Shown piece after piece: positions 5,691 to 64,000 of a stretch of DNA of 64,000 bases. The notes under the pieces were generated by a model. It did no database searches and was not told the DNA's origin. It saw nothing but the letters and a program-made list of their open reading frames with translations. Made by a program: the position numbers and the translations under genes. Every line of letters starts with the position of its first letter. Within the stretch, counting starts at the first letter, position 1. This stretch comes from Lingula anatina (taxonomy: Eukaryota > Animalia > Brachiopoda). Location of the stretch: positions 18,844,587-18,908,586 of the forward strand of contig CM120648.1 in NCBI GenBank assembly GCA_051362555.1, in the 5' to 3' direction.

Positions 5691-5871
5691 AACAGGACGG
5701 AGATTGTGGGATAATGTTGAACATATTTGACAAAGAAAGAGATATGATCTGACCGACTTGTAGGTATATGGAGCAAGTGTTTATGTTACTGTGATCTCCA
5801 AGCTGCAGCACCAGAAGTAAACATAAAGTTTAGCAATCGCTGACATAAATATTACAGGATCTACTGTCGGA

Positions 5872-18920: not shown

Positions 18921-18959
<39 letters not shown>

Positions 18960-36900: not shown

Positions 36901-39900
36901 AATTAGAAAAGCGTCAGTAACGTATGTTACAAAAACGGGGGTTTAAGCAGGTACATCATGAAAATGACTTAACTAAACCCGACTTTTGCAATATGGCCAA
37001 TAAGGTCAGTAATCTCACTAAGTCATAATATAGTGAAATGCCCCATATCTTGTGTCTTTTAAACGTGGGAAGGTGACACCCCCATTTGCACTGTTTTATT
37101 GATTTTGAGTGTAAATGGTATAAAATGTGTATATTTTCACCACTATTTTGTTTTTTTTTTTTAACCATGAATCATCTTAGACACGGTATCCGTAATAAAA
37201 AGCACTATTTCTAACAGTTCACAGCTGTGAGGTGATCATTTGTAAATAAAAGTACATGGAAATGGGGGTGGGACAACCTTTTGACCAATGTTGTATACAA
37301 ACAGACATGGCGTACAATCTACAAATATACCACCATATGTCCGTCCTCGGTGGCTACTGCCTTTCACATTCTCTGTTAGCGTCAAGTATGAATTGATGCT
37401 GCCATTTTGCTTTACGCTGTCGTTGATAACCCAATTCCGTACGTACCACGTCTCTGCAGTCATTGCATGCTATTTCTTTTGAAGTACACTATGTTTTTAT
37501 GTCACTTCTTCTTTTATTTTAATGTGTAAAGGAAATGAAGGAAGAAATAGAACAAGAAAGTCAAAGAGACGATCACAAGATCTACGATTCTTTCATCTTG
37601 TTTCTACTGAGCCATGGTACCGAGGGTGCTGTTTATGGAACGGATGGCTATCCTTTACCCTTCAAATATATCAAAGCCATTTTGAATAACAGGAACTGTC
37701 TTGGCCTGTCGGGCAAACCGAAAATGATATTTATTCAGGCTTGCCAGGGAAGTAAGTTATGGAATGTATTACACAAGCTTGAATACCTGCGATGAAAATA
37801 ACATGCAAAACTATTAAACAAATGTATTGAGATATTAAACTGTATTAACAGTTTGTCTCCTTTAAATTATATTCAGCCACACGAAATGAATGACGCTTAG
37901 TATTATGTAATTGTTTAATTAGTTAATACTGATATCAATTCTAACTTATATGTAAACATGTAATTCACATAAGGGTGTATGGGGTATTTCATTTTTTTTC
38001 CATATTCGCCCAGAGATATTGGACAGTGGGACACTCCTGGACGGACAAACAGTTCAACAACCACAGCAAGCACCACCTGCAGCAAACCTTGGTGATGAGG
38101 TACCCGATGCGCCACACGAGATTCCAAAGCCATCCAATGATCCGACGATGTCCGATTTTCTCGAAGTCCATGCAACTTCACCAGGTACTTTAACCGTGTT
38201 TCTTTGTATGCCATTTTACTTAGGCCTTACAAATGTGTTTTTCATCAGAAAAAAAAATCAAAATGATAAGGTGCACGTGGTGATGCTGGGATTATGGCAT
38301 TGTGCCTCAGGTAGAAGATGGTGTGCATTTTGTGGTCTTTCGACATATTGTGGAGAACTGTATTGTACGTGTATACTTTAAAATGCGCACTACATTACTG
38401 CACCAGTAAATACTGAAAATGGTGCATGTATTTTTATACAGTATCAAATAAAATATATGTGCCAAATTTAATTAAAATGTACGTACATTTTTGCCATAAT
38501 GCTTTTAAAAATGCGTTCACGATCACTACGAAAAATGAAAGTGTGTCGAGACGTTACCTTATTGTATTTGGGAAGCTGTCAGACGATTTCTTTCGATAAA
38601 AAAGACTTGGTAGCTTATGCAAATGTTGAGAAAAAAAACATGCCGATTATGGAAAATTCATATATCAAAATTTAAACTATGTATTTCGACAGATTTTAAT
38701 TTAATTTAATTTAAAAATCGCGATAGTGTATTTCTGACATTGAATTCTCAGTGTGCACAAAGTGTAGGCATCGAAGGCATTCATGAATGTCGACACGTTT
38801 GATTCTTTGAATCAGACGCTTCATGTACTTGATAGCGCAGAGGCATGCCAGGGAAAACAGAGGAAGAAAAGCAAGTTCTGGTTTTTCTTGATTGAAGGCT
38901 TTGATTTGTTGAAGGGCAATTCCGTATAGCCTGGTTTCCAAAGATCGTGTCGCAGGCATATCAGCAAAACAAAATGCATCGCCAAGGACCCGAATGCCAT
39001 GGCAAAATGTTTTAAGTTTACTTTGTTATTTTGATACAAATAAGCTTCTGGTTGACATAGATTTGACTGGTCCTCAACTTTCCATGCTGCACTGTGCCTG
39101 ACCGAAAAAAAACCCCTTAAAATGAGTAGTGATTCAGTGTTCCAATCATGCCTGTGACGGCTAGAAATGTGACCCATATTATTTGCCTTTTGGAGATCAT
39201 TTCAGGTCGGTTCACTGTAACACTATCGGCAAATAAACTTTACTAATAGTTCCTCGATCTATGAGATTTATGAAATTTGCTTTTCCGCACTCTCAGTGAC
39301 ACTAAGTACTGTTATATTAACAAAATAAAAATAAACAGTACTGTTGCATCTACGAGTAAATAATTCGTTAAGGCTTCAGTATTTTCTGTTTCAGAATACG
39401 TATCTTGGCGACACACGGGAAAGGGAACATGGTTTGTTCAATCCATTGTCGATACATTTTATCGTGAAGCACACAAATATGACGTTTTACAAATGTTGGT
39501 GAATGTAAGTACTGAAATAACCTGAACTACATTATTTTGCATTGAAAGTGTGTTAAATTCATTAGAACACCAATCAAATATAAAACATAGCTGCCAGAAG
39601 AAGTGACATGTCGTAAGAGGTGACTTATGTAAATACAGTCCAACATGCACAGACTTTTTAAGAACCAGCGAAATGCTTTTCTGTATATTTTGACAGTTTA
39701 ATCAGAACTGTTCACTTCATGTTATATTTTATTTCACCAGGTCAATCACGCGATCTCTCAAAAGCAAACAACAATGGGCAATAAACAGGCACCAGAGATA
39801 GTTACCAGCTTACGAAAGAAAGTTTTCTTCAACATAACTCCAGGTAAGCAAAAAGAGTCACATCTTCCCGAGGTGTATTCGGCCGAATAATAAAGACCTG

Positions 39901-42604: not shown

Positions 42605-42651
42605 AGACGGCTGTCAACGGTTTCATGCACAGAGATCCCGCAAACGAAGTA

Positions 42652-43911
42652 CACACACTGGACAATAGAAGTGTCACCCCCTAAATCAGAGTAATAAAAG
42701 TAGGCAGATCTTCGGTAGTATAATGTCTGGTCTACTTATAATGTGACTAATGAGTATAAAACCGCTATACCATGGAATTGTATTGTTGGTCTTGTACATG
42801 TACAGCAAATATTATTCCTGTCTTCCTCCAATATGGCAAGATACAGGCAATTACATAACGGTTATATGCGTCAAGTTTTTAACCTGAAGAGACGGAATAT
42901 AGGCAATGTCAGAATATCGATACAATTGAATTGTTCAGTCAGAATCATGCAGAGGGTCTGGTCTCGGTATGGAAACACTGGATCAAGAGACAAATTGCCT
43001 CTGATGGGTTGTCCAAGAAAAACTACTGGCCGTGAAGACCGACGACTGATTTTGATGTCCAGGTTGTCAAAGTTCGACACTGCTTGTCAGTTGACAAGAC
43101 AGTTGAACAATTTTACACATAAGAATGTGTCTGTGAAAATTATTAGGCGTCGGTTAAATTCTCAGAGAGTGTATAACAGGGTAGCAAGACAAAAAAAAAA
43201 CTCATATATCGTTACAAAACAGGCAAAGTAGAGTGAACTAGGGTCAACAGGATCTGGAACTGGACAGTCCATGGCAATTGGTCCTATATATTTTTTTCTG
43301 GTGGGTTTCGCTTTGGTCTGACCTCTGATGACAGATGGGTACGATGCTAGCGAACTGCTGGTAAAGCATTTGAAGCACATGCACTGAATTTTTGAACCCG
43401 GAGCAGCATATTTATCATGGTGTGGGGCTGCATCAGCATCCATTGCCTGGGCGAATTGGTAGTGGTTGATGGAAACATGAATCACTAGAAATATATCGAT
43501 GTTTTGGAGTCAGGCTTGCTACCATCTATTACTAACATGTTTGGTGACAGGAGTTATCCATTTGTTCACCAGGATGACAATGCTCCTTGTCACAGGCCCA
43601 GAGCAGTTGATGATTGGTTTGAACAACAGGACATTCACAGGTGATGTGGCCTGCCCAGAGACCGGATGCAAGACCGGATGCAAACATACCTGTAATTGAA
43701 AATGTGTGGAATGATATGTCAAAACTTTTGACAAATGTCCGTCTAACCAGTAGAGAATAATAGTTATATTATATAGAAGATAGTTATATTCAGTGTTTTT
43801 TTTTTTTTTTTTTTTTTGTGAAATTTGATGTTAATAAAATGATACCACAGTCATTTATCTCCCCCATAGTATTGGTGCAGTAGGGGAGACACTGCTATTG
43901 TTCAGTGTGTG
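42652..43911 (+). mobile_element. Tc1/mariner element with degenerate transposase
   Basis: ~31-bp TIRs, TA duplication, HTH ORF (GCPRKTTGREDRRL), VWGCIS, QDDNAPCH and IENVW, with frameshifts. Confidence 0.9.
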
Positions 43912-44518
43912 TACTTGCATTTTTTAGTAGATTCTATTTTAAAATGGAGATATTAGGCAGTTCTCTATGAACATTTCATTCGCCTTTGGTGTAAATACTA
44001 CAAAGGATTACGCAGTGAGAGGTCAAATGCCTGATATTAGGGACATTCTGTCCAGCTCTTAAGGAATTTTGGGGTAACATTTCATTAAACAGACTTGTAA
44101 TTATTTCTGAATATATGTCTCGCCGTCTACAGGAGACACATGCAGCACTTAGACATTAGCTTCTAAATAACGCAGTCTGATGCGGATAAAATATATGCTC
44201 TTGTTGATAATGTACATAAATTTGGTGAGAGTTGGCGGGGTCTTATCACTAAATGAATATTTTTACCTCTCCAGAAATCAATATAGAATATCAGATAAGA
44301 TGGGCATGAATAATCTAAATCTGCAATGTGGTATAAGATATGGATTTTCACACTGGTATTTTGTTTTATGTACCTTAGCCCATGTTGATTACAGTGTCTG
44401 CAATAAAAATATTAGAGACGGTTAACAGGTCTGATGCGATCATTTGTAAACGAAAGCACATGCAATTGGAGACGTGAAAACCTTTTTGATAAGTGGGTAT
44501 GTTATAATAGAAATATAA

Positions 44519-45535
44519 GGCCACACTTTTTTATTTTTATGGATGACATCCTCAGGGGACCCAAAAATCGGTGCGAGCGGGCGAAAAAAAAAAAAAGTCC
44601 AAAAAAAAAAAAAACCTGCTTAAGAAAAGTTGTGTTCAGTACACAGCTCTAAACACTAATTTACCACAGAAACGCGTATCAAACTAACAATATGTCTTTA
44701 TCCATGTTCCCAAAATATTAAAGCATTGTGAATATGGCCTGCTTCGTAGAAAGGTAAAAAGTCATGAATATACCTTCGTAGAAAGGTAAAAAGTCATGAA
44801 TATATATGTTGCATATTACCAAATCTATTTAAGGTTATTTCATGCATTCTGTTGGTATAGCAATCAATAAAACAAATATAATAAAATATAATAGCGTGTC
44901 TTTATTTGTACTCTCAGAAAATTAAAGCATTGTAAACACTTCACAGAATTGTTTAAAAAAATGAAGCAAAGATAGGCCTATGCTTCCTACTACCAAATCT
45001 AAAAAAGGTAATTTCGGTCGATGCCATTTTGTCTACTTCGACTCACACGTAGCAGCCAACTATCGGGTGGCCTGTCCGACCTTCAGTCCACCAAATACCA
45101 CGACGCTCTTGTCGACCCTTTTTTCGCTTCAAAAAAACCTGGTATGTGCTGCTTTGGACAGAATGTCACTGAAATTTCCTGGGCGATGATCGCTGGCCGC
45201 GGCCAGCCTTTCGTATAATTGTAAAAGGGTGATATCTCCATGACAATATCAATGGCAAACCAATCCAAAACGATGGCCCCGTTCTCTTTATGACTTTAAT
45301 TGTCGTGTATTTTGAAATGAATGCTAGAGATGAATTTGACGGCAAAGCTGCCATATTTCCACGTGGTGATAATACGCATGCGCAGAAAGCTCATTTTCCG
45401 CACTCGGAACTACTCGGATGTCTCCGCAGTCTACAATGACAGTATGGAGCTTGCGGAATAAGCCAAGGATTGCCGATTGCATTTTCCGGTAAATTCAATA
45501 AAGACGTTTGCGACAACCGACTTCCTTGGGGGGGG

Positions 45536-45584
<49 letters not shown>

Positions 45585-45645
45585 AGAACGGACGAAAATC
45601 GGTGCGCGCGCAGGATGTCATCCATAAAATTGAAAAAGTGTGGCC
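44519..45645. mobile_element. Non-autonomous TIR element with TAA target duplication (Zator/Harbinger-like)
   Basis: TAA-GGCCACACTTTTT..ATTTTTATGGATGACATCCT ... AGGATGTCATCCATAAAATTGAAAAAGTGTGGCC-TAA. Confidence 0.8.
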
Positions 45646-47077
45646 TAATATACGTACAAAGAAAATTATGTAATAGACTTGCATAGTTGGTTCTGATTTT
45701 TATTCGAATATTAAATGTAACAAATGTATTACAAAACATTTGTTTATTTATATAAGCTGTGAATACCTGTAGCTACGATGTTAATTCAAATGTCTGCCGG
45801 GCATTCTATTCATAGGCGTCCGATTTCCAACAACTGTGATGGCGAATCCACTGGGGCAAAGTAGGCCCTCTCCCTCATTTCTTAGCGATGAAACCACATG
45901 TGGGCATGTATTATCCTTACCCCACTCTTTCCCTAACAGACAAAACCAGTCAATATTCCAATTCATGCGCTCTGTATTACAATAAAAATGTCCTGGGCTC
46001 GGAATCTCGAAAGGATCGCTATGTTGCGCACGCGCTATAGCATGGCTAGCATGCGCTATCCCGTATCTCGAAAGCATCGCTACTTTGAGCGTCTGCGCTA
46101 TCATGGCTAGCGTGCGCTATCCCGTATCTCGAAAGCTTCGCAAATCCCGGCCGTGCGCTAATGTCCAAATCGCCATTAGTTTCGAGGCTATTATTTGCGG
46201 CCATACAAACTAGATGCAAGTGTTTTTACGCATGCGTACTTGGTCATTATATTGAAATCGTCATGGCGGCTAGTTTTGTTGTTATAAGAGAAAAATGCCA
46301 GGAAAATGCTAAAAGAAGGTGTGTGAGACATATAGATCCTATGGTAGAGTTCCAACCCCATATTTTTCATAAGAGATGCTGCATGACGCAGGAGAATGTG
46401 CTCAAACTGACCAATATTATTGAGGAACCTCTGAAAAGACCAACTACGAGGTCTTGAGCACTGTCACCCACTACCTAAGTTCTTGCTGCTTTACATGTAC
46501 TTGCTACTGGGTCAGATCACAAGGTGGTCGGCGACAGCCTTGATCTGTCACCAATGTCGGTGTCCAGAAGCCTCCATGCTGTGGTAGATTCAATTTTAAA
46601 CAGCCATGACCCAGCACTGCAGATCCAGTTTCCAACTGAAGAGGCAGATGTTAGGAGAGTGAAGAAGCAATTTTACGATGTTGCATGCTTCACTAATTTT
46701 ATCGGTGCCATCGATGGTTCTCTAATTCCAATAAAAGCTCCATCCCAAGATGAGAATTTGTTTGTGTGTCGTAAAGGCTTCCACGCTCTTAATATTCAAA
46801 CAATAGTGGATGCCAAATTGAAGTAAGTTAATTAACATTTTAAAGGCATTCAGATATTAGAAAAGCCTTTAGATCTACCCTTTGGCTGTTTCATGTTTGT
46901 TTCTATAATAAACTTATTAACTTCATTACATTATATAGGTAGTGTAATATACTGCATTATTATCCATTGTTATTTTATTACCACTTATCAAACTTATATC
47001 TTGAATTATTATTGATTTTAAATACCTCAGAGAAAATTAAATTTCAATGTACATTAGCTTAAAAATATTATTTATCT

Positions 47078-47134
<57 letters not shown>

Positions 47135-47431
47135 ATTTTTATTTTCATTATTGTTATTATTTCAGGTTTACAAATGTAGTTGCAACGCCAGTATTATGTA
47201 AAGTGCATTCGATTGTAACGAGTAAACACAGGTGTATAGTACGTAATTGCCTCTAGCAGTGACACTTGGTCATCTGCCTGATTTGCATGTAAATAAACGC
47301 CGAGTGCCTTGTCGGCACTTGAGGTATATGATTTGGACACTAAAGACGTGTTTGTTTGCTTCATGTCATGGCGTGGTGGCAGCGGTATTTTTAAAATTTC
47401 GTAACTACGTACGTCAGAGATACATTTGAAA

Positions 47432-48514
47432 ATGGCTAGTACAAATACAAGTTCACTTAGAGCACCAAAGCAATGGGTGCTTACAAAAACGGAGACAATA
47501 GGATCCTTCGAGAAGTGGAAGCAAAATCTCGAGTTTCTGCTCTCACAAGATGCAACATTTTCACACTTTTTGTCAAGTAGTGTGACATGGTTGAAGAAAA
47601 CCAAACAAAATCCTCTACGCGGATTTGTCGACGACGACGATACCATTTCTGAGAGACAACGACGCACAGCACAACAAAAGGTAACCCAATTAGAGTCTAT
47701 GCTAAATCAAATAGCCAACTTTTGTCCAGTAATTTCACGTGGATCAATTGTGAAAAGCTCTACCAGTCTGAATTCTGTTTGGCAGTCTATTCGGTTACAC
47801 TTTGGTTTTCAATCAACCGGCGCTCACTTTCTAGACTTTGCGCAAATAAAACTTGAACCCGACGAGAGGCCGGAGGATTTATATCAACGTTTAATGGCGT
47901 TTGTAGAAGACAGTTTGCTCACCGCCGATGGTGGTATTACTCATCACAACGAGGTTATGACAGACGACGAAGAAATTTCGCCTTCTTTAGAAAACTTTGT
48001 CATACTCACCTGGTTGAAGTTAATTCACAAAGATTTGCCCTTGCTAGTGAAAGAGCGATACGGAACGGAGTTACGATCTCGAACTCTCGCTTCAATCAAA
48101 CCTGAAATATCTCAAGCTTTAGATTCATTATTGGATCAATTGAATTCTCACGAGGAAATTCGTGCCATGAGAGCAATTACAAAGCAAAAACCCAAAATTT
48201 TCTCTCCCGTGAAGGAGCACGTTCCTATTTTCAACGCAAAAAAACGTTCTTGCCCGCTTTGTAAACAGGCCGGTCGACAACGCTACGATCATTTTCTCAG
48301 CACTTGCAAATTTTTACCCGAGCAAGATAAACTTTACATCACCAGGACTCACCAGGTTATGTGCAATGAAGAGTCATCCTCTGATGAGGAAATTGTTGTA
48401 GCAGACGTGTCTACCAACTCAAATTTTGAGATTCCCAGCGCAGAGGTCAACGTGTCCGCATTAGTCCTTCTCCATGCTTCGATGGTTATCACAATCAACA
48501 CCCGGTTCATTTAA
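47432..48514 (+). CDS. gag: Gag-like protein
   Basis: 360-aa ORF after the PBS with a CPLC..H....C zinc-knuckle-like motif. Confidence 0.85.
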   Translation: MASTNTSSLRAPKQWVLTKTETIGSFEKWKQNLEFLLSQDATFSHFLSSSVTWLKKTKQNPLRGFVDDDDTISERQRRTAQQKVTQLESMLNQIANFCPVISRGSIVKSSTSLNSVWQSIRLHFGFQSTGAHFLDFAQIKLEPDERPEDLYQRLMAFVEDSLLTADGGITHHNEVMTDDEEISPSLENFVILTWLKLIHKDLPLLVKERYGTELRSRTLASIKPEISQALDSLLDQLNSHEEIRAMRAITKQKPKIFSPVKEHVPIFNAKKRSCPLCKQAGRQRYDHFLSTCKFLPEQDKLYITRTHQVMCNEESSSDEEIVVADVSTNSNFEIPSAEVNVSALVLLHASMVITINTRFI

Positions 48515-51500
48515 CACTCGATTGTGGTGCCGAGTCTAATTTGATAAGTCAGACTACTGCAATAGAGATAGGAGCGCCCATCTTACCTAACAAGTCACAA
48601 ACAGCCAGCCAGGCAGACGGGAAATCCACCTTGAACGTTATAGGTGAAACTCGTATACACCTCACTCGAAATGAGAGATCGTTTTTCCTGGAGGCTCTCG
48701 TAGTAGACCAGTTGAGTACCGAAATTTTGGCCGGAACTCCATTTTTAGAGATGAACGATATTACTTTAAGACCAGCCCGAAAGCTGATTTCCTTTTCAGA
48801 TGGCTCCTCTATTACGTATGATGCTGGAAAAAACGTTCGATCTACAGCAAACATCAAACATACTCAGTCTCATATACTTCGCGCGGGACCAATAAATTCC
48901 ACGCTTTGGCCTGGAGACTATATTGAAACTGTCATTCCTGATAATTTGATTGGTGAGAAGGAACTCGCCGTTGAACCATGTGTCTATGGCAATGATTCTT
49001 CGCCTGTGTGGTTAAATCCGCAAGTCGTAAGATCAGTTCATAACAAAATAAGACTTACAAACGACACCGGACTACCATGTATTGTGAAACGCAACTCTCA
49101 CATTGGTTTTGTCTGTCCAGTGAGCGATAGTGAAAAATCGCTTGATTTCCAGCCATCCACTTTGGATACTTCGCCTGCCAACATTTCTATTGCGTCACCA
49201 GTACTTCACTCTGCTGCCGTAAAGTTGGATCCAGATTCTCTGTTAACATCAGGGGACAAACAAGATTTTCAGACACTACTTGTGTCATACGACAATGTTT
49301 TCAACCCGTCAATCCCCGGATACAACGGTGCTATGGGACCTTTTAAATCGGTGGTAAACATGGGTCCTACTCAACCGCCCCAGAGGAAGGGCAGGATTCC
49401 CCAGTATAGCAAAGACAAACTTGTCGATCTACAAGAGAAATTTGATTTTCTGGAGAGTGTTGGCGTCTTCGCAAAACCGGAAGATGTGGGTGTGAATGTC
49501 GAATATCTGAACCCTTCATTTCTGGTAAAAAAGAGCAACGGTTCGTTCCGCTTGGTTACTGCTTTCAACGAAGTTGGAAAATATTGCAAACCTCAACCGT
49601 CTCTTTTACCTGACGTAAATTCAACATTACGTAACATTGGAGGATGGAAACACATTATTACCACTGACTTATCCAGTGCCTTTTATCAGATTCCACTGGA
49701 TAAGAATTCTATGAAATATTGTGGAGTTGCTACTCCTTTCAAGGGAGTAAGAGTCTACACACGTTCAGCAATGGGAATGCCCGGGTCGGAGACAGCATTA
49801 GAAGAGATGATGTCACGTGTCCTTGGTGATCTTATAATGAAAGGCGTCGTTTGTAAGATCGCCGACGATCTTTACTGTGGCGGCGAAACTGTGAAAGAAC
49901 TGATGGATAATTTCCGACAGGTTCTACGAGCTCTCAGCAAGTGTGATCTCCGTCTTTCTCCGACCAAAACCGTGATTTGTCCAAGGGAAACAACAATCCT
50001 CGGATGGACTTGGAGAAGTGGTTTTCTCTCTGCCAACACTCACCGTATATCTACATTGTCGAACTGCGACCGCCCCATGACAGTTTTCGCGCTCAGATCC
50101 TTCATTGGTGCCTATAAAGCATTCGCACGCGTACTACCTGGCTGTGCTTCGATACTTGCTCCCCTAGATAGCATGACTGCCGGAAAACAGTCCCAGGATA
50201 AACTGTCATGGACGGAGGAGAATGTTGTTGCCTTCGAAAATTCAAAGAAAGCTCTACTCAACCATCGTTCTATTATGATTCCTCGGATCAACGATGAGCT
50301 GTGGCTTGTGACAGATGCCTCTTCTCGACACTCTGGTCTTGCTGCAACTTTGTACGCCAAACGCGGAGATAAGCTTGGTTTATCTGGATTTTTCAGCGCA
50401 AAACTCCGAAAACATCAGGTGACTTGGATACCGTGTGAGCTGGAAGCGTTAGCTATAGCTTCTGCGATCAAACACTTCGCTCCATATATTATACAGTCAA
50501 GTCACCAAATGCATGTTTTAACTGATAGTAAGCCTTGCGTACAAGCACATGTTAAATTATGCAGAGGAGAGTTTTCTGCAAGTCCACGAGTGTCCACATT
50601 TCTCTCTTTAGCCAGTAGATATCACGTTTCTGTGCAACACCTGGCAGGTTCAGATAATATTCCAACTGATTTCGCAAGTAGAAACGCAAAAGAATGCCAA
50701 AGCCAGAAGTGTCAAGTTTGCAGCTTTGTCTATGACCTACAAAACTGCGTGGTATCTAGTGTTTCCACCGACGATGTTCTTAGCGAGATCAAACAGCTAC
50801 CATTCACCAACCGGAAAGCATGGCTTCAAATTCAACAAGAATGCTACGATCTACGTCGAACTAAGGCCCACTTATCTCAAGGTACGCGACCTAGTAAAAA
50901 AAACAACGGAGTGTCTAACGTGAAACGTTATCTGCACATTGAGGGTCTTACCATCGCAAAAGACGGTCTTCTAGTAGTACGCCGTCAATCACCTTTGGAA
51001 AACGAACGTGATCTTATAGTAGTTCCCAGACAGGTGTTAAGCGGACTTCTTACTGCTCTCCACATCCGTCTAGAACATCCGTCCAGTTATCAGCTTAAGA
51101 GCGTAGTAAAACGCTACTTTTACGCGTTGAACTTAGACAAAGAAGCCGACGAGACATCGCATTCATGCCATCGATGTGCTTCCTTGAAAAAAATTCCTCA
51201 TCTTCAACAGGAACAGTCTTCAGAAGAACCCCCACCTACAGTTGGAGCATCATTTGCCGCTGATATTATGAAACGACACTCACAAAATATACTGATTGTA
51301 AGAGAAACGGTCACTTCTTTCACAACCGCATGTTTTGTGAAGGACGAAACTAAGGATAGTTTACGGGAAGGTCTCATTCAACTGTGTGCAGAAATGCGAC
51401 CACTTGACGGTCCATTTGCTGTCATTCGCACTGATTCTGCTCCTGGATTCAAATCATTAGTATCAGATGAGTCCCTTCGATCGTCTAGATTAGTCATCGA

Positions 51501-52281
51501 AATAGGACGTCCCAAAAACATCAATAAAAATCCAGTGGCGGAAAAAGCAGTTCAGGAACTTCAAGACGAAATTCTTCGCAAAGATCCCTCGCGTGATTCT
51601 ATTTCTCAAACTACTCTCAGCCTGTGCGTTGCTCAGCTCAATTCTAGAATGCGCCGAGGAGGTTTGTCTGCGAGGGAAATGCTTTTTCAGAGGGATCAAT
51701 TCACCTGTCAACAAATTCCCACTTCAGATAGAAAACTGATTATTGATCAGCATTCTATAAGAGCGAAAAACCACGACAGTAGTATGCAATCTAAAGCGCC
51801 TTTAAAACAAAGCGCCAATGATAACAATCTCAGTGTAGGAGATATCGTTTATTTACATCACGACAAGACAAAGAATTACGACCGAGATCGCTACATGGTG
51901 GTAAAAGTCGACGGTCACTGGTGCAATGTTCAAAAATTCATAGGAAATCAGCTACGATCTATGTCTTATAGAGTTAAACAATCAGACTGTTATAAGGTAC
52001 CCGTTTATAAATGGAGAAAAGTCAACGATTTATGTAGTGACAACTCCGATGATTCGGACTTATCTTTGTCTGACTATGAAAACGTAAATACTGCTGACAA
52101 CGACAAGGAACCTTGCAATGACTTTGACTCTTTCCATGAATTTCAGCCTCAAGTTGACGAAAGCAACGAAAATGGTGAAGTTGAAACTCCATCAGATCTA
52201 TGTGAACAACCAGCTCAAACTCTTAGACGTTCTACGAGAAAAAGACAAACTCCCAAATATCTTACTGATTATGTTTTGTAA
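48430..52281 (+). CDS. pol: Pol polyprotein (protease, RT, RNase H, integrase)
   Basis: Frame open from 48430. Protease LDCGA, RT TDLSSAFYQIPL..MGMPGS..IADD, RNase H TDAS..ELEALA..TDSKP, integrase H..H..C..C, RTDSAPGF, NPVAEKAV. Confidence 0.93.
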   Translation, partial: DSQRRGQRVRISPSPCFDGYHNQHPVHLTLDCGAESNLISQTTAIEIGAPILPNKSQTASQADGKSTLNVIGETRIHLTRNERSFFLEALVVDQLSTEILAGTPFLEMNDITLRPARKLISFSDGSSITYDAGKNVRSTANIKHTQSHILRAGPINSTLWPGDYIETVIPDNLIGEKELAVEPCVYGNDSSPVWLNPQVVRSVHNKIRLTNDTGLPCIVKRNSHIGFVCPVSDSEKSLDFQPSTLDTSPANISIASPVLHSAAVKLDPDSLLTSGDKQDFQTLLVSYDNVFNPSIPGYNGAMGPFKSVVNMGPTQPPQRKGRIPQYSKDKLVDLQEKFDFLESVGVFAKPEDVGVNVEYLNPSFLVKKSNGSFRLVTAFNEVGKYCKPQPSLLPDVNSTLRNIGGWKHIITTDLSSAFYQIPLDKNSMKYCGVATPFKGVRVYTRSAMGMPGSETALEEMMSRVLGDLIMKGVVCKIADDLYCGGETVKELMDNFRQVLRALSKCDLRLSPTKTVICPRETTILGWTWRSGFLSANTHRISTLSNCDRPMTVFALRSFIGAYKAFARVLPGCASILAPLDSMTAGKQSQDKLSWTEENVVAFENSKKALLNHRSIMIPRINDELWLVTDASSRHSGLAATLYAKRGDKLGLSGFFSAKLRKHQVTWIPCELEALAIASAIKHFAPYIIQSSHQMHVLTDSKPCVQAHVKLCRGEFSASPRVSTFLSLASRYHVSVQHLAGSDNIPTDFASRNAKECQSQKCQVCSFVYDLQNCVVSSVSTDDVLSEIKQLPFTNRKAWLQIQQECYDLRRTKAHLSQGTRPSKKNNGVSNVKRYLHIEGLTIAKDGLLVVRRQSPLENERDLIVVPRQVLSGLLTALHIRLEHPSSYQLKSVVKRYFYALNLDKEADETSHSCHRCASLKKIPHLQQEQSSEEPPPTVGASFAADIMKRHSQNILIVRETVTSFTTACFVKDETKDSLREGLIQLCAEMRPLDGPFAVIRTDSAPGFKSLVSDESLRSSRLVIEIGRPKNINKNPVAEKAVQELQDEILRKDPSRDSISQTTLSLCVAQLNSRMRRGGLSAREMLFQRDQFTCQQIPTSDRKLIIDQHSIRAKNHDSSMQSKAPLKQSANDNNLSVGDIVYLHHDKTKNYDRDRYMVVKVDGHWCNVQKFIGNQLRSMSYRVKQSDCYKVPVYKWRKVNDLCSDNSDDSDLSLSDYENVNTADNDKEPCNDFDSFHEFQPQVDESNENGEVETPSDLCEQPAQTLRRSTRKRQTPKYLTDYVL

Positions 52282-52995
52282 TAATGTCTTAAAAGAGTTT
52301 ATACCTATGAATCTGACACTCAGTTATCTATAAACGGAGAGGAGACTTCCATGTACCTTTGACATTGACACTCTACTGTTACACCTCTGTACATACTGCA
52401 CTAATGTTTTTGTATTGATTTTGCCGTTATTATACATTATTTAATCCTTTTATAAAAAAAAAAAAAGAAAGAAAGAAAGAGAAAGAGAAAGAAAAGTGAT
52501 TACGCCAGTATTATGTAAAGTGCATTCGATTGTAACGAGTAAACACAGGTGTATAGTACGTAATTGCCTCTAGCAGTGACACTTGGTCATCTGCCTGATT
52601 TGCATGTAAATAAACGCCGAGTGCCTTGTCGGCACTTGAGGTATATGATTTGGACACTAAAGACGTGTTTGTTTGCTTCATGTCATGGCGCAAAATGGCC
52701 AGGTTCAACTCATGACAGCTTCATTTTCAACCAATGTGCCATACATGAGATGTACGAAGCAGGAATGCTGCCAAGGAGTTATCTACTCGGAGACAGTGTG
52801 TATGCTCTGTCTCCTCTCATAATGACACCAATCCTGCACCCGATCACTGCAGAAGAAGAGGCCTATTCTGAGATCCAAAGGAAAACCAGGACTGTTGTTG
52901 AACAGGCACTTGGTGTAACTAAAGGCAGATTCAGGTATGTTTACCCTTTATGGGATATAAATCTAATCCCTATTGTGAAAACACCCATTAACTAA

Positions 52996-53210
52996 GGCTC
53001 TGTTCTCACAACTTTTAGATCGATCTATCACCGCGGGGAGTCTCACTAGATTACTGTCAGATAATCCCCCTTAAGTGTCCGTCCCCGCCTACTACAAGCT
53101 TTAAGGGGTAATTAACTTTCGTGTCCGCCCGGCTGACAGCTATTTAGCGTGAACCCCCAGGGAGTTAGGTCGATCCAATGTAGGTCGATCTAATCTATGA
53201 GAATGGGGTG
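52996..53210. mobile_element. Possible small MITE in transposase intron 2
   Basis: TAA flanks and imperfect IRs (TTCTCA..TAGATCGATCTA / TAGGTCGATCTA..TGAGAA). Confidence 0.4.
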
Positions 53211-53679
53211 TAAGTTTGTGTATTTACTTTCATCAATCAGTTCCCAACCTACATTCAATAGGGTGACTCCCCTTTTCACCCACACCCACACATAATTATA
53301 AAACCTGGCAAATAATTTTGTTTCAAAAGTCTTGGTTATAAATCATAATAACGTTAACTAGTAAAAAAAAAAAGTCTTATAAATTTGTGATTTATTGTTT
53401 CCTGTAAGAAATATAATCAAATGTTCTGATACAATAATATCTTCTTTATTTTAGGTGTATGTACAAGAATGGTGGTCATCTCTGGTACACCCCAGAGATG
53501 TGTGGGAGAATCATCATTGTCTGTTGTATCCTACACAATTTTTGTCAGGAAAACAACCACCCGCACCATGAGGATGAAGATCCTGACATTGATGCAAGTG
53601 TTCATGACAATGTGTGTTTGTTGGTCCTGTACTTTCCTCTGGTCTCAGGACCAGGGAAGAAATAATCAGGAACTTCTTT

Positions 53680-54455
53680 ACACATTAGTCATGTACACCT
53701 GCCTCGATGTCAGGATCTTCAACTCAGCAGCCCCATGAATCTGCCTTATGGTACACCAAGAGCCTTTTCAACAACACTTCTGTATTTTGACTCTCAGAAA
53801 ATGCCTCTTCCTCTCAATGATCGGCCCCAGGATTAATGACATCATGATTGGAGACAGTGGAAATACTGCCTCTGAGTGGGAAGCCACTTGGCATTTCCTA
53901 CCTTGTACATCTCTTGTATGGTACAGATATTGAAAATGAAGCTGTCGTGGGTTGTTAGCCAGCCCACCTTGGAACTACATTTGTACACTGAAAACTTTCC
54001 ACAAACAAACATATTCACATCAAAGGAATCAGGATGGAACTTTTATTGGAGCTAGAATAGCACTGATGGCACTGATGACCTTCTGGAAGCCAAATATATG
54101 TTTAACTCTCCTAACATCTCCCTCTTTACTTGGGAACTTGATATGCAGTGCATGGACATAGCATGGATACCGACAATGATGCCAGATCAAGGTTGTCTCT
54201 CTGCCACCACTTTGATCTGACCCAGTAGAGACTACATGTAAAGCAGCAGTAATTGGTGTAGCAAGCACTTGTGACAGTGTTTAAGACCTCGTGGTCAGTC
54301 TTCTTTAAGGTTCTTCATTGATCCCTTGAGTCAGTTTGAGCACATTCTCTGAAGTCATGCAGGATCTCTTATGAAATAGATGAGGTTGGAACTCTAGCAT
54401 AGGATCTCTGAGTCTCACACACACACTTCCATATTCTCCTGGTATTTTTCTCTAA
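53680..54455 (-). repeat. Inverted, diverged, intron-lacking copy of the Harbinger transposase CDS
   Basis: Reverse complement aligns by eye, in order, to 46285-46780, 47170-47185 + 52691-52933 and 53576-53612. Confidence 0.85.
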
Positions 54456-55397
54456 CTCTCAGTTGGATCATTTATGAATCATTGTGGGATGAATATGGAT
54501 TATTGTTTCATTAAACAAAATAATGAAAACTGATGTTCTCTTTAAAATGTCATAATTTATTATATTTTGCATATAATACTAAGAACTGAAATTTAAAATA
54601 AGTGTACAAAATGACAAAGGTGTACAGATTTGATTTAACATAACAGCTAGTGTTCATGCAGGAAATTTAATAACAAATTCCAGGAATCAAAAAGACTTAT
54701 ACTTTAAGTCAATTACTTTTGAAGTACACTTTCAATGCAAATAGGGCAAAATAAAATCACTTTAAAGTTTATGTAAGAAACAAAACAGATGGTCAAGTTA
54801 TGTTTTACATAAATTTTTTATTTTATGAAACAATAACATTATGAAAATATTAAATAAAATATAAAAATAATATTATAAACAATTTCCTAAATGTATATTC
54901 TTGTCTAAATTAAAGTTAATAAGTACAGTATAAAAATAAAGTCCTTTTCAAGGAAATGAAAACTATCCCTTATAAAAGATTTGTAACAAATTCCAGTTCT
55001 TTGCCGAGGTCATAAACTTAGTTTAAAATACAGCACTGAATGATCAAACTGATTCACATATTGAAAATTACTGAATGAAAAATACTGAAAAATTATCAAA
55101 AAGAAATTGCATAAATTAAAGGAAAAAATAATACAGTCAAGTTGGCATGTATATCCTTATAATCATTCTTGTACGTAAAAAAATAAGTAACAAAGTTTTA
55201 TTTTTCATTATATTTGTGGTGGCAGGGTCCACAATAGGGATTTTGCCAATTTTGATGCAATATAACATAATACTTAACAGCATATTCACTACAAAATTAA
55301 AATAATATATGTGAAAGTTCACAGTACAGGGATGATGACTGCAACAACAGATGCAACTAATGGCTAGTACAGTGATGTACAGTAACATACAGCTAGT

Positions 55398-55913
55398 ATG
55401 TGTCTTGGCAAAAACAAAAAAATATCATGATCCCAATAAGATGCACTCACTGGTAAGTATCTACAAGAGACTCGCACTTCAGTACATCCAACTTCATTTC
55501 ACAGTATTCTGTTATTTTTTCAAATAACACTTTGTTACTTTTGTCAATTTCTAATCTCTCCCTTTCTAACTGTAAACGCTCTTTTTCTACTTTCAACCTC
55601 TCCTCCTCTAATGCTAAGCGATCCTTCTCTACGTTGTAAAGCCTTTCACTTACATCTGTGTCTTGGCAAAAACAAAAAAATATCATGATCCCAATAAGAT
55701 GCACTCACTGGTAAGTATCTACAAGAGACTCGCACTTCAGTACATCCAACTTCATTTCACAGTATTCTGTTATTTTTTCAAATAACACTTTGTTACTTTT
55801 GTCAATTTCTAATCTCTCCCTTTCTAACTGTAAACGCTCTTTTTCTACTTTCAACCTCTCCTCCTCTAATGCTAAGCGATCCTTCTCTACGTTGTAAAGC
55901 CTTTCACTTACAT
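55398..55913. repeat. Near-perfect 258-bp tandem duplication of the Myb-gene terminal exon
   Basis: Coiled-coil exon and stop codon occur twice (stops at 55447 and 55705). Confidence 0.9.
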
Positions 55914-58900
55914 CTGAAATTTGAAGATGTATGTAATTAATAATTAAATATAAAAATGATATAATAAGAACTCAATCTTTTCAATATTCTAAATATTACA
56001 GATACTGTACTTTTAAGTCAATGTGATAGTTCTTCATAAATGAACATATTCCTGTTGAGTTGCAGCAACAAAAATGAAAAGCTGACCATCTGACAATGTT
56101 GAACGCTTTCATAAGCTATATGTTTGAAATTACCAATAAAGTTTCATTTGTTAATAGGTATAGAAATACGGTAATTAACTCATATGTTTCAACCAATAAT
56201 AGACTGAAAAGCACACCTGACTGCCCACAGATGGTAATGCCTATCACAGCCCTCATTTCCCTGATGAAGTCTGGCTGTAAGCAAACACTATATACATAGG
56301 TATATACTCCCCGAACAAATGATTTAAGAGCATTACTTATTCAAACACAAATGTAAATATTAATGTTTATATACCTTGTGATGATGTATGCACCTTCTTC
56401 TTTCTACTGGATGAACCGGTTGCTGAAATCAGCATTTACATGTTAAAATTGGCTGATATAAATAATAATAATAATCAAAATGCATTTTGATCAAGTGATT
56501 ATGTAATGTCCTAAATTCATGTGTTAAAATGGGTGATGTAATTATACATTAAAATATGCAAGTAATCAGAAGCAGTGAACATTGATTGGAAAACATAAAA
56601 TAAATACATATATTTTAATAAAATCTAAAATTAAATATAATAAATACCTCTTCTTTTAAATGGTACATGGCAGGAATGTTCATAGCTAACAAAGAAAATA
56701 GCAATACTATATATGAACATATGATGATTACCTTTCCCTGATGTTAACAAATAATATATCTGTATAAGGATGGGTCCCACTCTGCAGTGACTCTTGTAAA
56801 GTGTAATCTGCATAACTGAATGACATGCCTCCTCCAGCGGCTACAGGGTACTGAACTTGCATGTGTGCTCAGATTAATTACCTGCTAGGTGTTGAAGAAG
56901 GCAAGTCACACAGTAAAGGTATAAGGATCTCACACAGAGTTGTACCAATCCAACTTAATGTAATAGGCTGTGTTTCCCTGTATGGGGATCTAGGAGATTG
57001 CATTCTTTTAATTTTAATTTCAATGTTTCTCTCAATATGATAATTTATATTGTTTTACTTGCAACTTTAAAACAGATGCATTAGAATATATATGCAATAA
57101 GCACCTGTTGTTAAGCCCGTTTCATGACTAGAATCTGTAGCTTGCACGTCTTCATGCCTAGTATAGATGGAGGTGGATTCTGCATTACTATCATTCCTAG
57201 TATTCATGGAGGTGGATTCTGCATTACTATCATTCCTAGTATTCATGGAGGTGGATTCTGCATTACTATCATTCCTAGTATAGATGGAGGTGGATTCTGC
57301 ATTACTATCATTCCTAGTATTCATGGAGGTGGATTCTGCATTACTATCATTCCTAGTATAGATGGAGGTGGATTCTGCATTACTATCATTCCTAGTATAG
57401 ATGGAGGTGGATTCTGCATTACTATCATTCCTAGTATTCATGGAGGTGGATTCTGCATTACTATCATTCCTAGTATTCATGGAGGTGGATTCTGCATTAC
57501 TATCATTCCTAGTATTCATGGAGGTGGATTCTGCATTACTATCATTCCTAGTATAGATGGAGGTGGATTCTGCATTACTATCATTCCTAGTATTCATGGA
57601 GGTGGATTCTGCATTACTATCATTCCTAGTATAGATGGAGGTGGATTCTGCATTACTATCATTCCTAGTATAGATGGAGGTGGATTCTGCATTACTATCA
57701 TTCCTAGTATAGATGGAGGTGGATTCTGCATTACTATCATTCCTAGTATTCATGGAGGTGGATTCTGCATTACTATCATTCCTAGTATAGATGGAGGTGG
57801 ATTCTGCATTACTATCATTCCTAGTATAGATGGAGGTGGATTCTGCATTACTATCATTCCTAGTATAGATGGAGGTGGATTCTGCATTACTATCATTCCT
57901 AATATAGATGGAGGTGGATTCTGCATTACTATCATTCCTAGTATAGATGGAGGTGGATTCTGCATTACTATCATTCCTAGTATAGATGGAGGTGGATTCT
58001 GCATTACTATCATTCCTAGTATAGATGGAGGTGGATTCTGCATTACTATCATTCCTAGTTTTCATGGAGGTGGATTCTGCATTACTATCATTCCTAGTTT
58101 TCATGGAGGTGGATTCTGCATTACTATCATTCCTAGTATAGATGGAGGTGGATTCTGCATTACTATCATTCCTAGTATTCATAGAGGTGGATTCTGCATT
58201 ACTATCATTCCTAGTATTCATGGAGGTGGATTCTGCATTACTATCATTCCTAGTATTCATGGAGGTGGATTCTGCATTACTATCATTCCCAGTATTCATG
58301 GAGGTGGATTCTGCATTACTATCATTCCTAGTATAGATAGAGGTGGATTCTGCATTACTATCATTCCTAGTATTCATGGAGGTGGATTCTGCATTACTAT
58401 CATTCCTAGTATTCATGGAGGTGGATTCTGCATTACTATCATTCCTAGTTTTCATGGAGGTGGATTCTGCATTACTATCATTCCTAGTATAGATGGAGGT
58501 GGATTCTGCATTACTATCATTCCTAGTATTCATAGAGGTGGATTCTGCATTACTATCATTCCTAGTATTCATGGAGGTGGATTCTGCATTACTATCATTC
58601 CTAGTATAGATAGAGGTGGATTCTGCATTACTATCATTCCTAGTATAGATGGAGGTGGATTCTGCATTACTATCATTCCTAGTATAGATGGAGGTGGATT
58701 CTGCATTACTATCATTCCTAGTATAGATGGAGGTGGATTCTGCATTACTATCATTCCTAGTATAGATGGAGGTGGATTTTGCATTACTTTCATTCCTAGT
58801 ATTCATGGAGGTGGATTCTGCATTACTGTCATTCCTAGTATTCATGGAGGTGGGTTCTGCATTACTGTCATTCATAGTATTCATGGAGGTGGGTTCTGCA

Positions 58901-61709
58901 TTACTATCATTCCTAGTATAGATGGAGGTGGATTCTGCATTACTATCATTCCTAGTATTCATGGAGGTGGATTCTGCATTACTATCATTCCTAGTATAGA
59001 TGGAGGTGGATTCTGCATTACTATCATTCCTAGTATTCATGGAGGTGGATTCTGCATTACTATCATTCCTAGTATAGATGGAGGTGGGTTCTGCATTACT
59101 ATCATTCCTAGTATTCATGGAGGTGGATTCTGCATTACTATCATTCCTAGTATTCATGGAGGTGGATTCTGCATTACTATCATTCCTAGTATTCATGGAG
59201 GTGGATTCTGCATTACTATCATTCATAGTATTCATGGAGGTGGATTCTGCATTACTATCATTCCTAGTATTCATGGAGGTGGGTTCTGCATTACTATCAT
59301 TCCTAGTATTCATGGAGGTGGGTTCTGCATTACTATCATTCCTAGTATTCATGGAGGTGGGTTCTGCATTACTATCATTCCTAGTATAGATGGAGGTGGA
59401 TTCTGCATTACTATCATTCCTAGTATAGATGGAGGTGGATTCTGCATTACTATCATTCCTAGTATAGATGGAGGTGGATTCTGCATTACTATCATTCCTA
59501 GTATTCATGGAGGTGGATTCTGCATTACTATCATTCCTAGTATTCATGGAGGTGGATTCTGCATTACTATCATTCCTAGTATTCATGGAGGTGGATTCTG
59601 CATTACTATCATTCCTAGTATTCATGGAGGTGGATTCTGCATTACTATCATTCCTAGTATAGATGGAGGTGGATTCTGCATTACTATCATTCCTAGTATT
59701 CATGGAGGTGGATTCTGCATTACTATCATTCCTAGTATAGATGGAGGTGGATTCTGCATTACTATCATTCCTAGTATTCATGGAGGTGGATTCTGCATTA
59801 CTATCATTCCTATTATTCATGGAGGTGGATTCTGCATTACTATCATTCCTAGTATTCATGGAGGTGGATTCTGCATTACTATCATTCCTAGTATTCATGG
59901 AGGTGGATTCTGCATTACTATCATTCCTAGTATAGATGGAGGTGGATTCTGCATTACTATCATTCCTAGTATAGATGGAGGTGGATTCTGCATTACTATC
60001 ATTCCTAGTATTAATGGAGGTGGATTCTGCATTACTATCATTCCTAGTATAGATGGAGGTGGATTCTGCATTACTATCATTCCTAGTATAGATGGAGGTG
60101 GATTCTGCATTACTATCATTCCTAGTATAGATGGAGGTGGATTCTGCATTACTATCATTCCTAGTATAGATGGAGGTGGATTCTGCATTACTATCATTCC
60201 TAGTATAGATGGAGGTGGATTCTGCATTACTATCATTCCTAGTATTCATGGAGGTGGATTCTGCATTACTATCATGCCTAGTATTCATGGAGGTGGATTC
60301 TGCATTACTATCATTCCTAGTATTCATGGAGGTGGATTCTGCATTACTATCATTCCTAGTATAGATGGAGGTGGATTCTGCATTACTATCATTCCTAGTA
60401 TAGATGGAGGTGGATTCTGCATTACTATCATTCCTAGTATAGATGGAGGTGGATTCTGCATTACTATCATTCCTAGTATTCATGGAGGTGGATTCTGCAT
60501 TACTATCATTCCTAGTATAGATGGAGGTGGATTCTGCATTACTATCATTCCTAGTATAGATGGAGGTGGATTCTGCATTACTATCATTCCTAGTATTCAT
60601 GGAGGTGGATTCTGCATTACTATCATCTACATAAGAACAAATACATGTACTTTATTACCAAACATTACATTTAAACCACTTTCAAGAACTAAGTTGAATA
60701 ACTTGGTCACATATTTCTTCCAAAGCAGTTATTACAATTTCATACATCAAATTCATACACTGTAGCTATATCATTTGACCTTTACTAGGCTAATTCATTA
60801 TAGTTACATTTCATACCTATGAACAACTGGCTGTCGTTTCCAGCCAATTCTTTGATACCCTCTACTGCAGTTTCTCCAATTATCTCTATTACCTGATCAG
60901 TATAAACATATAGAGATATATGTATATATAAAATATGCCTCCTGGTTATTGGACATTCCAATAGGGCATGTCTGTGAAACTCAGTGTTGACGTATTCATA
61001 TTCACAGAGTCAGTCTAAGTTAATTACTCTACTAAATATCATCTTGATGTTCTTAAAGCAATTAAATATAAAACGAAGTTAGCCATTGTGCAATTTAATA
61101 TACAAATTCATTTTTTTAAAAATAAATAACAAAATAACACCTTCTTCTTCCACTCTGACAGTGGACTGGGCCCCACACCACCACCCTTCTGCCGCATTGC
61201 TGCACGGCGTTTGGCCTCTTTGCGCTTAGTGCGAGACGTGAGGTCATGCCATTTTTTCCTGACCTCTCGGAAACTCCTCTTTATATGTGAAACACTGTTA
61301 ACTCTAAAAGGAAAGCATTCATAATTTTAATAAAAAAAATATATAAGAATCACCACTTTATTGCTTCATCATACTGTGCATGACCATGTCAAGATGTGTT
61401 AATAGAGAGCAATTACAATTACTTTTATTGAATAACTACAACAACATACCAAACTAAATCATCAATAAGCAATAATTAAATATAATGGATATAATTTTAA
61501 CATGGCAAAACAGACTACGATTAACAGAAAAGGACTGTTAATCATAATTATTCAACTTACTTTTCGGCAACTGCAGCCCATTGTTTTTCTTTGGACTTTA
61601 GAGTCACGGTGTTGGTGAAGGGGCTAAATAGTGTAGGTCTACACGAGACCTCCTCCACCAACACCGCGAGCTCATCGGTTTTATAACGCTCCCTGCTGTG
61701 TTTCTCCAT
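55705..61709 (-). CDS. Harbinger Myb/SANT-like DNA-binding protein (NAIF1-like) with repeat-expanded exon, ~1388 aa
   Basis: Exons 61709-61561, 61303-61141, 60892-60817, 60626-57105, 56422-56375, 55913-55705, all GT-AG and phase-compatible. ELAVLVEEV..KQWAAVAEKVN..R...EVRKKWHDL...GGG. C-terminal coiled coil. Confidence 0.8.
57150..60626. repeat. 39-bp minisatellite, ~89 copies
   Basis: Unit GGAGGTGGATTCTGCATTACTATCATTCCTAGTAT(AGAT/TCAT). Confidence 0.98.
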
Positions 61710-64000
61710 TTCACGTGCGATTTACTATCGTTCCTCCAAACAAAAAAGAACCGCTAGGCGTACGCGTGTGTTCGAGACTATAATTGTACTTCCGGACAGG
61801 CATTTATTGCGTTGCGTTTGCTAAGGCTTCGAGATATCAGGTGGGTGCAATCGCACTAGCAAATAGCGCACGCTAGCTATGCTATAGCGCGTGCGCAACA
61901 TAGCGATCCTTTCGAGATTCTGAGCCCAGCTCTCTCTAACACTACGGTCCTGGCAACAAACACAGCAGACACATCAAAGCCGAATACGTCCTCACCTGTC
62001 CCGATGGCAATCACAGTGCTATCCCCGGGACAAAGTCCAATCCGGAGACCAATCACAACGAGCAAGGCTCACTCAAGACGATCGACACAAATGTCTCTCT
62101 AACGAAGCCTAATAAGCACTTCGTGTATCTTTACGTACAGGTAGGCCTAACTATCAGTCGTTACGATGACAAATTGACGATTACTTTGAGATCTCACCTT
62201 GTAGAAGGGTGTGACTGGTTGAAAATCCGTTCCCTCCCATACGGTGGATGGAATGTGCTATTGTTCAACTTAGAAGTACCGTCACCGTTTGTTTGCTATC
62301 TACCCAAGATCTCCGTAAAGTTCAGAGGTACGTCAATATCGTTGAAAACAGGAAAAGCTGAATCCTGTCGACTGCGCCATTTGTAACTGAGTATCACAAC
62401 AAACATCGACTGAATCTCAGAAGAATCAGCTTCTTTATTCCTGTACATACATACACGCCAACGTGACAGTGTGAGTAAAAATAACTCAAGAATACTGTTC
62501 AGTCTGTCCGGAGATTCCGAGCTGCGCGTGCACATTGACTGAAGCGACGGCCATTTCCGCACTACTTTCAGCAAAATCGAGTGAGAATGGACGACTTTTG
62601 ATCTCTTCTTGTTTTCATGTGTATTTTTGTCAACTGTTGATGTGATTAAACGATATGTATATAAAAGGAAGCGGGAATGTCTAGGGATTCGGAATTTTAA
62701 GGTTAGTTGTCATAAAAAATAGATTTAGAACTGTAAAATGGGAGATTTATCCACGCGGGTGATTGCAAATGGAGCCCCGTTTCAGGTGTCCGCAATTTTC
62801 TATTTAAAGATTTCTGTAAGAATTTGAAATCTCACAATTTTTTAAAAACTAAATCATGAAAGCCAATTAAGCTGGGTTTCTGGCAGTATATATGTTTTGT
62901 AAATTCAGCTTTGTCCATTTTTTTTAGCGCGAGGTGAAATCGACGCCAAGCACTCGCATTTCTGAAGCGTGTCACACCAGTGCGTTTCAACTATTACAAA
63001 ATTGCTACAATGTTTATTTCACCAGCGTTTTACATATATTCTAAAAGCTAAACAAGTGGGCTTCGTGTTGAAATTAAATATATGTTGCGTTCGGGTCCCA
63101 ACTGGCTGGCAAAGTGTTAATAATCCCGTGAAGTCTGTGTAAAAGTTGCAAAACCGATTATTTCAGGTGCAGTAGGTTACTGTGATTATGTATCGCAGGA
63201 AACGCAAAATATTTTCAAACAATTATATCTTGCAGAAAGACGAGATCATAAACTTTCAAATGCTATATCATAAGGTATGTCTCCTACAATTTTTACCCAT
63301 TTTGTGTGGGGAAATAAGTGAATCTCCAAAACGACGACAAAATGGAACCCCATTTTCGTCATAATTTATAGCGTCACGTGACCAACCTGAAGCACTGACC
63401 CGACTTAGAAAGACTACAAGTTTTCTTAAATATTCTGAATATCAGAGCAAACAGATTACAATGAAAATAAAAATACGAACAAGGACTGTACATCAAACAT
63501 CAGATTTATTCCAAGAGTTATATGCTTCATTCTGAAAACATCAAAAATGGTATAGTTATGATCCACCCCACAAGAAATCCAGTGTGAATTTTGACTAATA
63601 TAGGAAGATATTGCTATATCTAGTAATAAATAAAACACGATTTTTTATTTGGATATATATTTACTGTACAATGAAGTACTGGCCTATGGCCAGGTTGTAC
63701 TTTTTAAAGCCTGAAAGGGTTTTGATAATAAAAAAAAATCATTCAGCACCGGTTTATTCATTATATTAAGATCTGCACTAATGCCTTGTTCTCTTATTTT
63801 ACTGCTCAAGATTTATTTCTATGTACTAGTACTATTTTTGTCTCTTACATATTAAAATATTTAAAATGAGGCCCTTCCAATTATGATTTGAAAAAATCCC
63901 TTATCTACTTAAATTTACATGCAAAATATTAAAATCTGTGTAATAAACACAACTAAGTAAACTTGTGTCCTTAAAACACTGTTCCTGGGAAATGTTCATT

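Follow-up and report, generated by a model that had tools for sequence, protein, structure and literature searches.

The transposase gene of a 15.9-kb PIF/Harbinger element, an animal cut-and-paste transposon located within the 64,000-nucleotide stretch of DNA analysed here (the window), is directly followed by an antisense, intron-free and decayed copy of a transposase coding sequence (CDS), referred to below as the arm (Table 1). On balance, the arm is best interpreted as an old fold-back copy that sits passively in the 3′ UTR of a probable multi-copy family, with a hairpin that is predicted for the transcript and is not maintained as a silencer. Any effect of the arm on expression would most likely act in cis and be incidental, through editing or retention of the folded mRNA, its decay or a block to its translation.

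The element is assigned to PIF/Harbinger by its DDE_Tnp_4 transposase, its Myb/SANT-like second gene and its 67-nt terminal inverted repeats (TIRs), which bound the element and are 96% complementary. The 3-bp target site duplication is imperfect, with CTG on the left (45993–45995) and CAG on the right (61927–61929), and these do not form a direct repeat; the unequal triplets may reflect mutation or recombination between two insertions. The transposase is 40–45% identical to HARBI1-like proteins, and the named relatives among the protein matches, all at identities of at most 45%, belong mostly to molluscs and other lophotrochozoans, with some from fish and cnidarians. A search for longer proteins using exon 1 returned none. 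The transposase of the studied copy is broken by two in-frame stops in exon 1, by a Gypsy LTR retrotransposon in exon 2 and by a 1-nt shift before the C-terminal motif G...R..II...F, which 62 of the 81 outgroup transposases of at least 330 aa also have.

The Gypsy insertion encodes gag (369 aa) and pol (1283 aa) in different frames and has unusual ends, starting with CGCCA and ending with TGGCG as an inverted pair, with a CAA duplication. Its 3′ LTR is preceded by a purine tract and TGATTA that are missing at the 5′ LTR, which might reflect integrase-independent insertion. The MITE-like insert in intron 2 is very high-copy and widely transcribed. The last exon of the Myb-like gene lies in an exact 258-bp tandem duplication (55399–55914, with the duplicate at 55399–55656); one DNA run of the species (X1) has no depth in the last bin covered (55569–55650), so the duplication may be restricted to this copy or may stem from the assembly. 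Elsewhere in the window there is a multi-exon Roc-COR gene (16340–28363; Roc E 3e-6, COR-A E 2e-21), an NHL-repeat ORF of 331 aa (5827–6822; E 1e-20) and a Tc1/mariner-like relic with 34-bp inverted ends (42647–43916; HTH_Tnp_Tc3_2 E 9e-4). Nested long inverted repeats that are 82–92% complementary occupy 29864–37282 (30052–30445 with 33139–33531, and 29864–30005 with 37141–37282), and a 102-bp inverted pair (75%) surrounds a 900-bp stretch directly left of the Harbinger element (44513–45651).

Table 1. Features of the PIF/Harbinger element and of the antisense arm, in window coordinates.
Feature	Position	Strand	Remarks
Left TIR of Harbinger	45993–46059	+	67 nt, flanking CTG included
Transposase exon 1	46263–46822	+	DDE_Tnp_4 match, translation; in-frame stops at 46455 (TGA) and 46476 (TAA)
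Intron 1	46823–47165	+	GT-AG, 343 nt; missing from arm
Transposase exon 2, first part	47166–47185	+	
Gypsy LTR retrotransposon in exon 2	47186–52690	+	Young; identical 188-bp LTRs; CAA duplicated at 52691–52693
Transposase exon 2, second part (exon 2b)	52694–52934	+	HD, LGD, VE catalytic region; DDE_Tnp_4 Pfam E 2e-12
Intron 2	52935–53454	+	GT-AG; missing from arm
MITE-like insert in intron 2	52993–53210	.	High-copy, 218 bp; not in majority DNA contig
Transposase exon 3	53455–53688	+	C-terminal motif G...R..II...F and TAG (53686–53688), both one frame off in studied copy
Core hairpin	53572–53724	+	Stem 53572–53644 / 53649–53724, 4-nt loop 53645–53648; AATGTGT/ACACATT 7-nt pair at join
Antisense arm, decayed transposase CDS copy	53680–54453	-	774 bp, exon order 3-2-1, 80% identical, intron-free
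First candidate poly(A) signals after stop	54510–54755	+	ATTAAA 54510, AATAAA 54750; inferred
Myb/SANT-like partner gene	55447–61709	-	Convergent with transposase; Myb_DNA-bind_5 E 3.3e-6 (exon 2); - strand RNA reads
Myb-like gene exons	exon 1 61561–61709; exon 2 61141–61303; last exon ~55705–55913	-	
39-bp tandem array	57150–60630	.	~89 units, 94–98% alike; inside Myb-like gene
Right TIR of Harbinger	61863–61929	-	67 nt, flanking CAG included

The original prediction described approximately 780 bp of reverse complement of exons 3, 2 and 1 following the transposase stop, and the alignment bears this out. Compared with the spliced CDS (53615 back to 46287, reversed), the arm exhibits 80.4% identity over 673 nt in blocks of at least 15 nt, with an alignment score of 653 against a maximum of 34 among 100 shuffles. 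With gaps, blastn gives 68–75% identity (E 9e-56 and 3e-36), and 77% of the exon sequence is retained. The arm lacks both introns, as claimed, with no detectable remnant of either (P 0.13 and 0.96 against shuffles). It also reads through the empty Gypsy site; this observation stands, though as a clue to origin it is trivial, because the two 188-bp Gypsy LTRs are identical while the arms differ by 20%, making the Gypsy insertion far younger. A processed retrocopy would have lost its introns precisely; here both introns are gone, but exon sequence is also gone at the junctions, approximately 40 nt from the end of exon 1 and approximately 107 nt from exon 3, in agreement with the deletions noted originally. 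The remaining deletions are small (1–25 nt). The poly(A) tail and target duplication marks of a processed retrocopy were not found, and there is no A-tract at the arm start. That start lies directly at the stop codon, where a 7-nt AATGTGT/ACACATT pair falls inside exon 3, and the far end lies 24 nt after the ATG, with no continuation into the leader or TIR (P 0.74). By a modest preference, the arm is likely an inverted duplication, old in age, of the transposase CDS of this very element. Viral contigs contained no relative, and the single Rfam match over 53400–54600 (E 0.96) is under its gathering score. A metagenome match to a 20-nt arm motif at one locus (L001) was rejected as chance (57% GC, no blastn match to the window).

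The innermost stem had been placed at 53576–53612 with 53681–53720, around a loop of approximately 65 nt. This stem is confirmed and slightly longer (53572–53615 with 53680–53724; z -8.96, 0 of 200 shuffles), but the supposed loop is itself a stem. It is self-complementary (0 of 2000 shuffles), and the palindrome runs on to a 4-nt loop at its centre, within the last codons of the gene. The right half of the palindrome is original coding sequence because it encodes G...R..II...F followed by the stop. For the spliced RNA as far as 54530, folding predicts -958 kcal/mol with 610 CDS–arm pairs in 88 helices, compared with -512 to -521 kcal/mol (about -518) when the arm is shuffled (3 shuffles). The claim that the spliced transcript folds back over most of its CDS thus holds as a prediction.

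Whether other copies share the arm had been put forward as a check, and DNA reads of the species point to an arm that is probably built into a multi-copy Harbinger family. The read data covered positions 52640–55650, and two high-copy inserts account for 11% of that part. Ten DNA runs contain this stretch; nine of them, from three studies, hold 0.35–0.61 of its words, one of the nine having merely 62 million letters, and the tenth (X10), with the same species label, holds 0.11. The eight longest contigs of X1 have depths of 302–902 and match at approximately 99%, with 20 differences in approximately 1,670 nt. A contig at 53636–53823 bridges the stop codon and the arm (depth 628), a joint from 52992 to 53211 skips the intron 2 insert (depth 388), and a variant contig has a depth of 17. 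Depth is uneven, rising from 300–390 in exon 2 and intron 2 outside the inserts to 570–1090 in exon 3 and the arm, and is not a copy number; neither a single-copy baseline nor a second insertion site was seen. These reads may instead derive from one deeply sequenced polymorphic locus, and the low share of words in X10 also speaks against a family; the high-depth contigs, the spread across runs and the variant contig fit a multi-copy family.

The arm likely lies in the 3′ UTR of the transposase mRNA. From the stop to 54510 the + strand contains neither AATAAA nor ATTAAA, and the - strand has AATAAA at 55197, 54817 and 54556; from this placement of signals, the transposase mRNA likely includes the arm and the Myb mRNA likely ends before it. 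Three RNA runs were aligned, using 6%, 6% and 25% of their reads. The arm is represented by approximately 12 reads in X15 and approximately 2 in X12, all first-mate minus and together about 7 fragments, and by no reads in X18. Reads from the last Myb exon (approximately 4 and 8) are all first-mate plus, which places the arm RNA on the + strand, the strand of the transposase. The arm reads carry the letters of the majority contig at 53733, 54249 and 54698, so the RNA derives from different copies or from other alleles. A single X15 read, of the same strand, connects 52992 with 53211, and RNA reads are almost absent from exon 2b and the 5′ half of exon 3. Bearing on a transcript with both arms are the + strand arm reads and one exon 2/intron 2 fragment; among the approximately 7 arm fragments of the three runs, no read was seen to link exon 3 with the arm over the centre of the hairpin. 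The leftmost arm reads of both runs start at approximately 53632–53638, near that centre. Either cleavage or stalled reverse transcription could produce such starts, the numbers being very small; stalling at stems has been reported for the Nmy hairpin (PMC2062475).

The differences between the CDS and the arm follow a pattern that looks like a gene under selection compared with a neutral pseudogene copy. The dN/dS between them is 0.57–0.63, the mismatches by codon position are 41/40/51, and synonymous differences exceed expectation (40 observed, 30.6 expected, P 0.02). Outgroup transposases were aligned from 123 loaded proteins, with P0001 and P0009 left out, and against these the 73 amino-acid differences are distributed as 34 favouring the CDS, 7 favouring the arm and 32 neither way (p 2.5e-5). 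The same direction is repeated in each third of the protein and in a smaller set of 7 outgroups (32 for the CDS, 6 for the arm). From these comparisons, the sense gene probably remained functional for some time while it already carried the arm. The CDS keeps 88 of 122 conserved columns, the 115 outgroups having a minimum of 75% and a median of 87%, and it has the defects R40C, R78H, G94D and N252S in common with the arm. Given these shared defects and the column count, some decay may predate the duplication; some of the shared defects are of the CpG type and could be parallel. The observed/expected CpG ratio is 0.31 in the CDS and 0.14 in the arm. At two of the 7 positions that favour the arm, the change is private to the studied copy, the majority contig having the arm's residue. 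Four majority-contig differences were examined, of which two are the arm's residue, a third is H at codon 277 and the fourth is silent, indicating that part of the damage is private to the studied copy.

The arm itself appears to decay neutrally, with no sign of selection for pairing. Between CDS and arm, 31 changes are G:U-compatible and 29 are incompatible A:C changes (p 0.90), and the excess of G:U-compatible substitutions sought in the original prediction was therefore not found. Paired blocks are not clustered either, as the longest CDS–arm paired run is 25 (null 27.3), 112 of 373 21-nt windows have at most 2 mismatches (null 136.5), and there are 11 perfect 21-mers (null 11.5). With neither a G:U excess nor clustering, the duplex shows no sign of selection as a silencer; the absent G:U bias would be compatible with function all the same, because a hairpin can act without selection for pairing.

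A functional role for the arm is conceivable but unlikely. The family would have kept it because the folded mRNA lowers transposase output, through dsRNA editing, through decay or through small RNAs directed at further copies, and this would have let the lineage persist. Consistent with this, the arm has survived approximately 20% divergence while the sense gene was more conserved, it lost its introns and retained 77% of the exon sequence, CDS and arm still pair over 112 of 373 windows at the threshold given above, and the leftmost reads start where cleavage would place them. The read starts are also explained by reverse transcription stalled at the stem (Nmy, PMC2062475), and the missing G:U excess, the lack of block clustering and the many indels argue against retention for pairing. 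The host machinery may also be absent, as the endo-siRNA pathway is reported to be lost in Trochozoa (PMC11114477); if the host is trochozoan, that loss would rule out an hpRNA-like route. It is similarly doubtful that this is an animal DNA-transposon lineage that stayed autonomous and whose 3′ UTR antisense copy, reverse-transcribed from its own spliced mRNA, would serve in every copy as a heritable self-limiter; the host, possibly without endo-siRNAs, would then respond through dsRNA sensing.

A terminal event similar to Mu killer is improbable. In this scenario the duplication arose in a failing copy, and the dead hairpin element, silencer or not, was then mobilised in trans or became fixed at a single site. 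The stops, the frameshift and the CpG depletion of both CDS and arm (0.31 and 0.14) would be expected, as would the defects at near-invariant residues present in both arms. However, neither the 34:7 asymmetry nor the synonymous excess would arise without post-split selection on the CDS, and part of the damage belongs to the studied copy only.

For the passive fold-back copy favoured here, a 3′ end exposed by a break at the stop codon would have primed on the small hairpin in the last codons, with the 7-nt AATGTGT/ACACATT pair as the putative priming site, and the gene would then have been copied backwards. Fold-back priming at breaks near pre-existing short inverted repeats has been described (PMC10622511), and a palindrome that continues to the 4-nt loop with a coding right half is expected if a pre-existing hairpin seeded the priming. 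A spliced mRNA is modestly favoured as the template over genomic DNA followed by two large deletions. In a rough placement model, the loss of both introns through two deletions of approximately 400 nt has a chance of 0.011, compared with 0.069 that the observed deletions would touch the two junctions of a spliced copy, and the DNA-template model requires two deletions far bigger than all others (at most 25 nt). Counting against an mRNA template, junction 1 can also be read as retaining the intron acceptor TTTCAG, and DNA fold-back is the commoner event. The junctions were considered as proof of DNA deletion and rejected as such, since junction 1 fits either template about equally.

There is a slim chance that the arm derives not from the same molecule but from a different and older family member, dead or processed, and was joined in inverted orientation by template switching at the C-terminal hairpin. 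Such a source would account for the extra damage and deletions of the arm without long co-residence, and intron loss could have occurred elsewhere, but the far end of the arm has no TIR or leader, the join is flush with the stop codon, and the mismatches are not third-position-biased as they would be between two selected families. An independent nested Harbinger is rejected, as the arm has no TIR or leader of its own (P 0.74) and its mismatches are distributed 41/40/51 by codon position.

If the arm lowers transposase output, the element would be a direct test case for self-restraint by a DNA transposon, and also for the handling of long endogenous dsRNA in invertebrates that have no clear siRNA pathway. 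A spliced-mRNA template would make the arm a natural record of RNA-templated repair in cis. Should neither be true, it is a tidy, ordinary fold-back relic. A literature search covering titles and abstract openings, with Repbase and most subscription journals outside its coverage, found no Harbinger family with an internal antisense transposase copy.

The element has in common with the PIF/Harbinger superfamily (PMC9179366) a DDE_Tnp_4 transposase and a Myb/SANT-like gene between TIRs; it differs in the imperfect 3-bp duplication and in its internal antisense arm, which goes unmentioned in the excerpted text of that source. Fold-back repair (PMC10622511) is similar in that the duplication begins at a pre-existing short inverted repeat, but it copies DNA and would keep the introns, whereas the arm is intron-free. 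The composite Ac/Ds insertions (10.1101/2020.01.07.897926) also feature transposon-derived inverted repeats that are transcribed into dsRNA. They are from a plant, arise by alternative transposition, include the termini and have demonstrated 21–24-nt siRNAs. The Nmy hpRNA of Drosophila simulans (PMC2062475) resembles the arm as an intron-free copy of a selfish gene that forms a hairpin homologous to its target, though that retrocopy is separate from its target, acts in trans and has near-identical repeats of 345 bp as well as TPRT marks. In the Harbinger element the target CDS is itself one arm of the hairpin, in cis, 80% identical and free of poly(A) or duplication marks.

The duplex of a Drosophila-type hpRNA evolves by G:U-preserving or compensatory changes and is processed by Dicer-2/Ago2 into phased 21-nt RNAs. 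In contrast, the arm exhibits neither the G:U-preserving pattern (31 vs 29) nor block clustering. Mu killer (PMC3440606) is similar to this element in its inverted duplication of transposase sequence within a DNA transposon and its proposed fold-back RNA. It is a single locus, recently rearranged, that contains the same end twice and has proven trans-silencing, whereas the present element keeps both TIRs and its partner gene, has arms that are 20% diverged, one of them intron-free, is seemingly family-wide, and would be a silencer only hypothetically. Its unusual features are the loss of introns, the apparent carriage of the arm throughout a family and the selection that acted on the sense gene once the two had split. 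The killer loci known so far are isolated accidents by which a family is switched off, while the hairpin described here appears old, element-borne and compatible with continued selection on the transposase.
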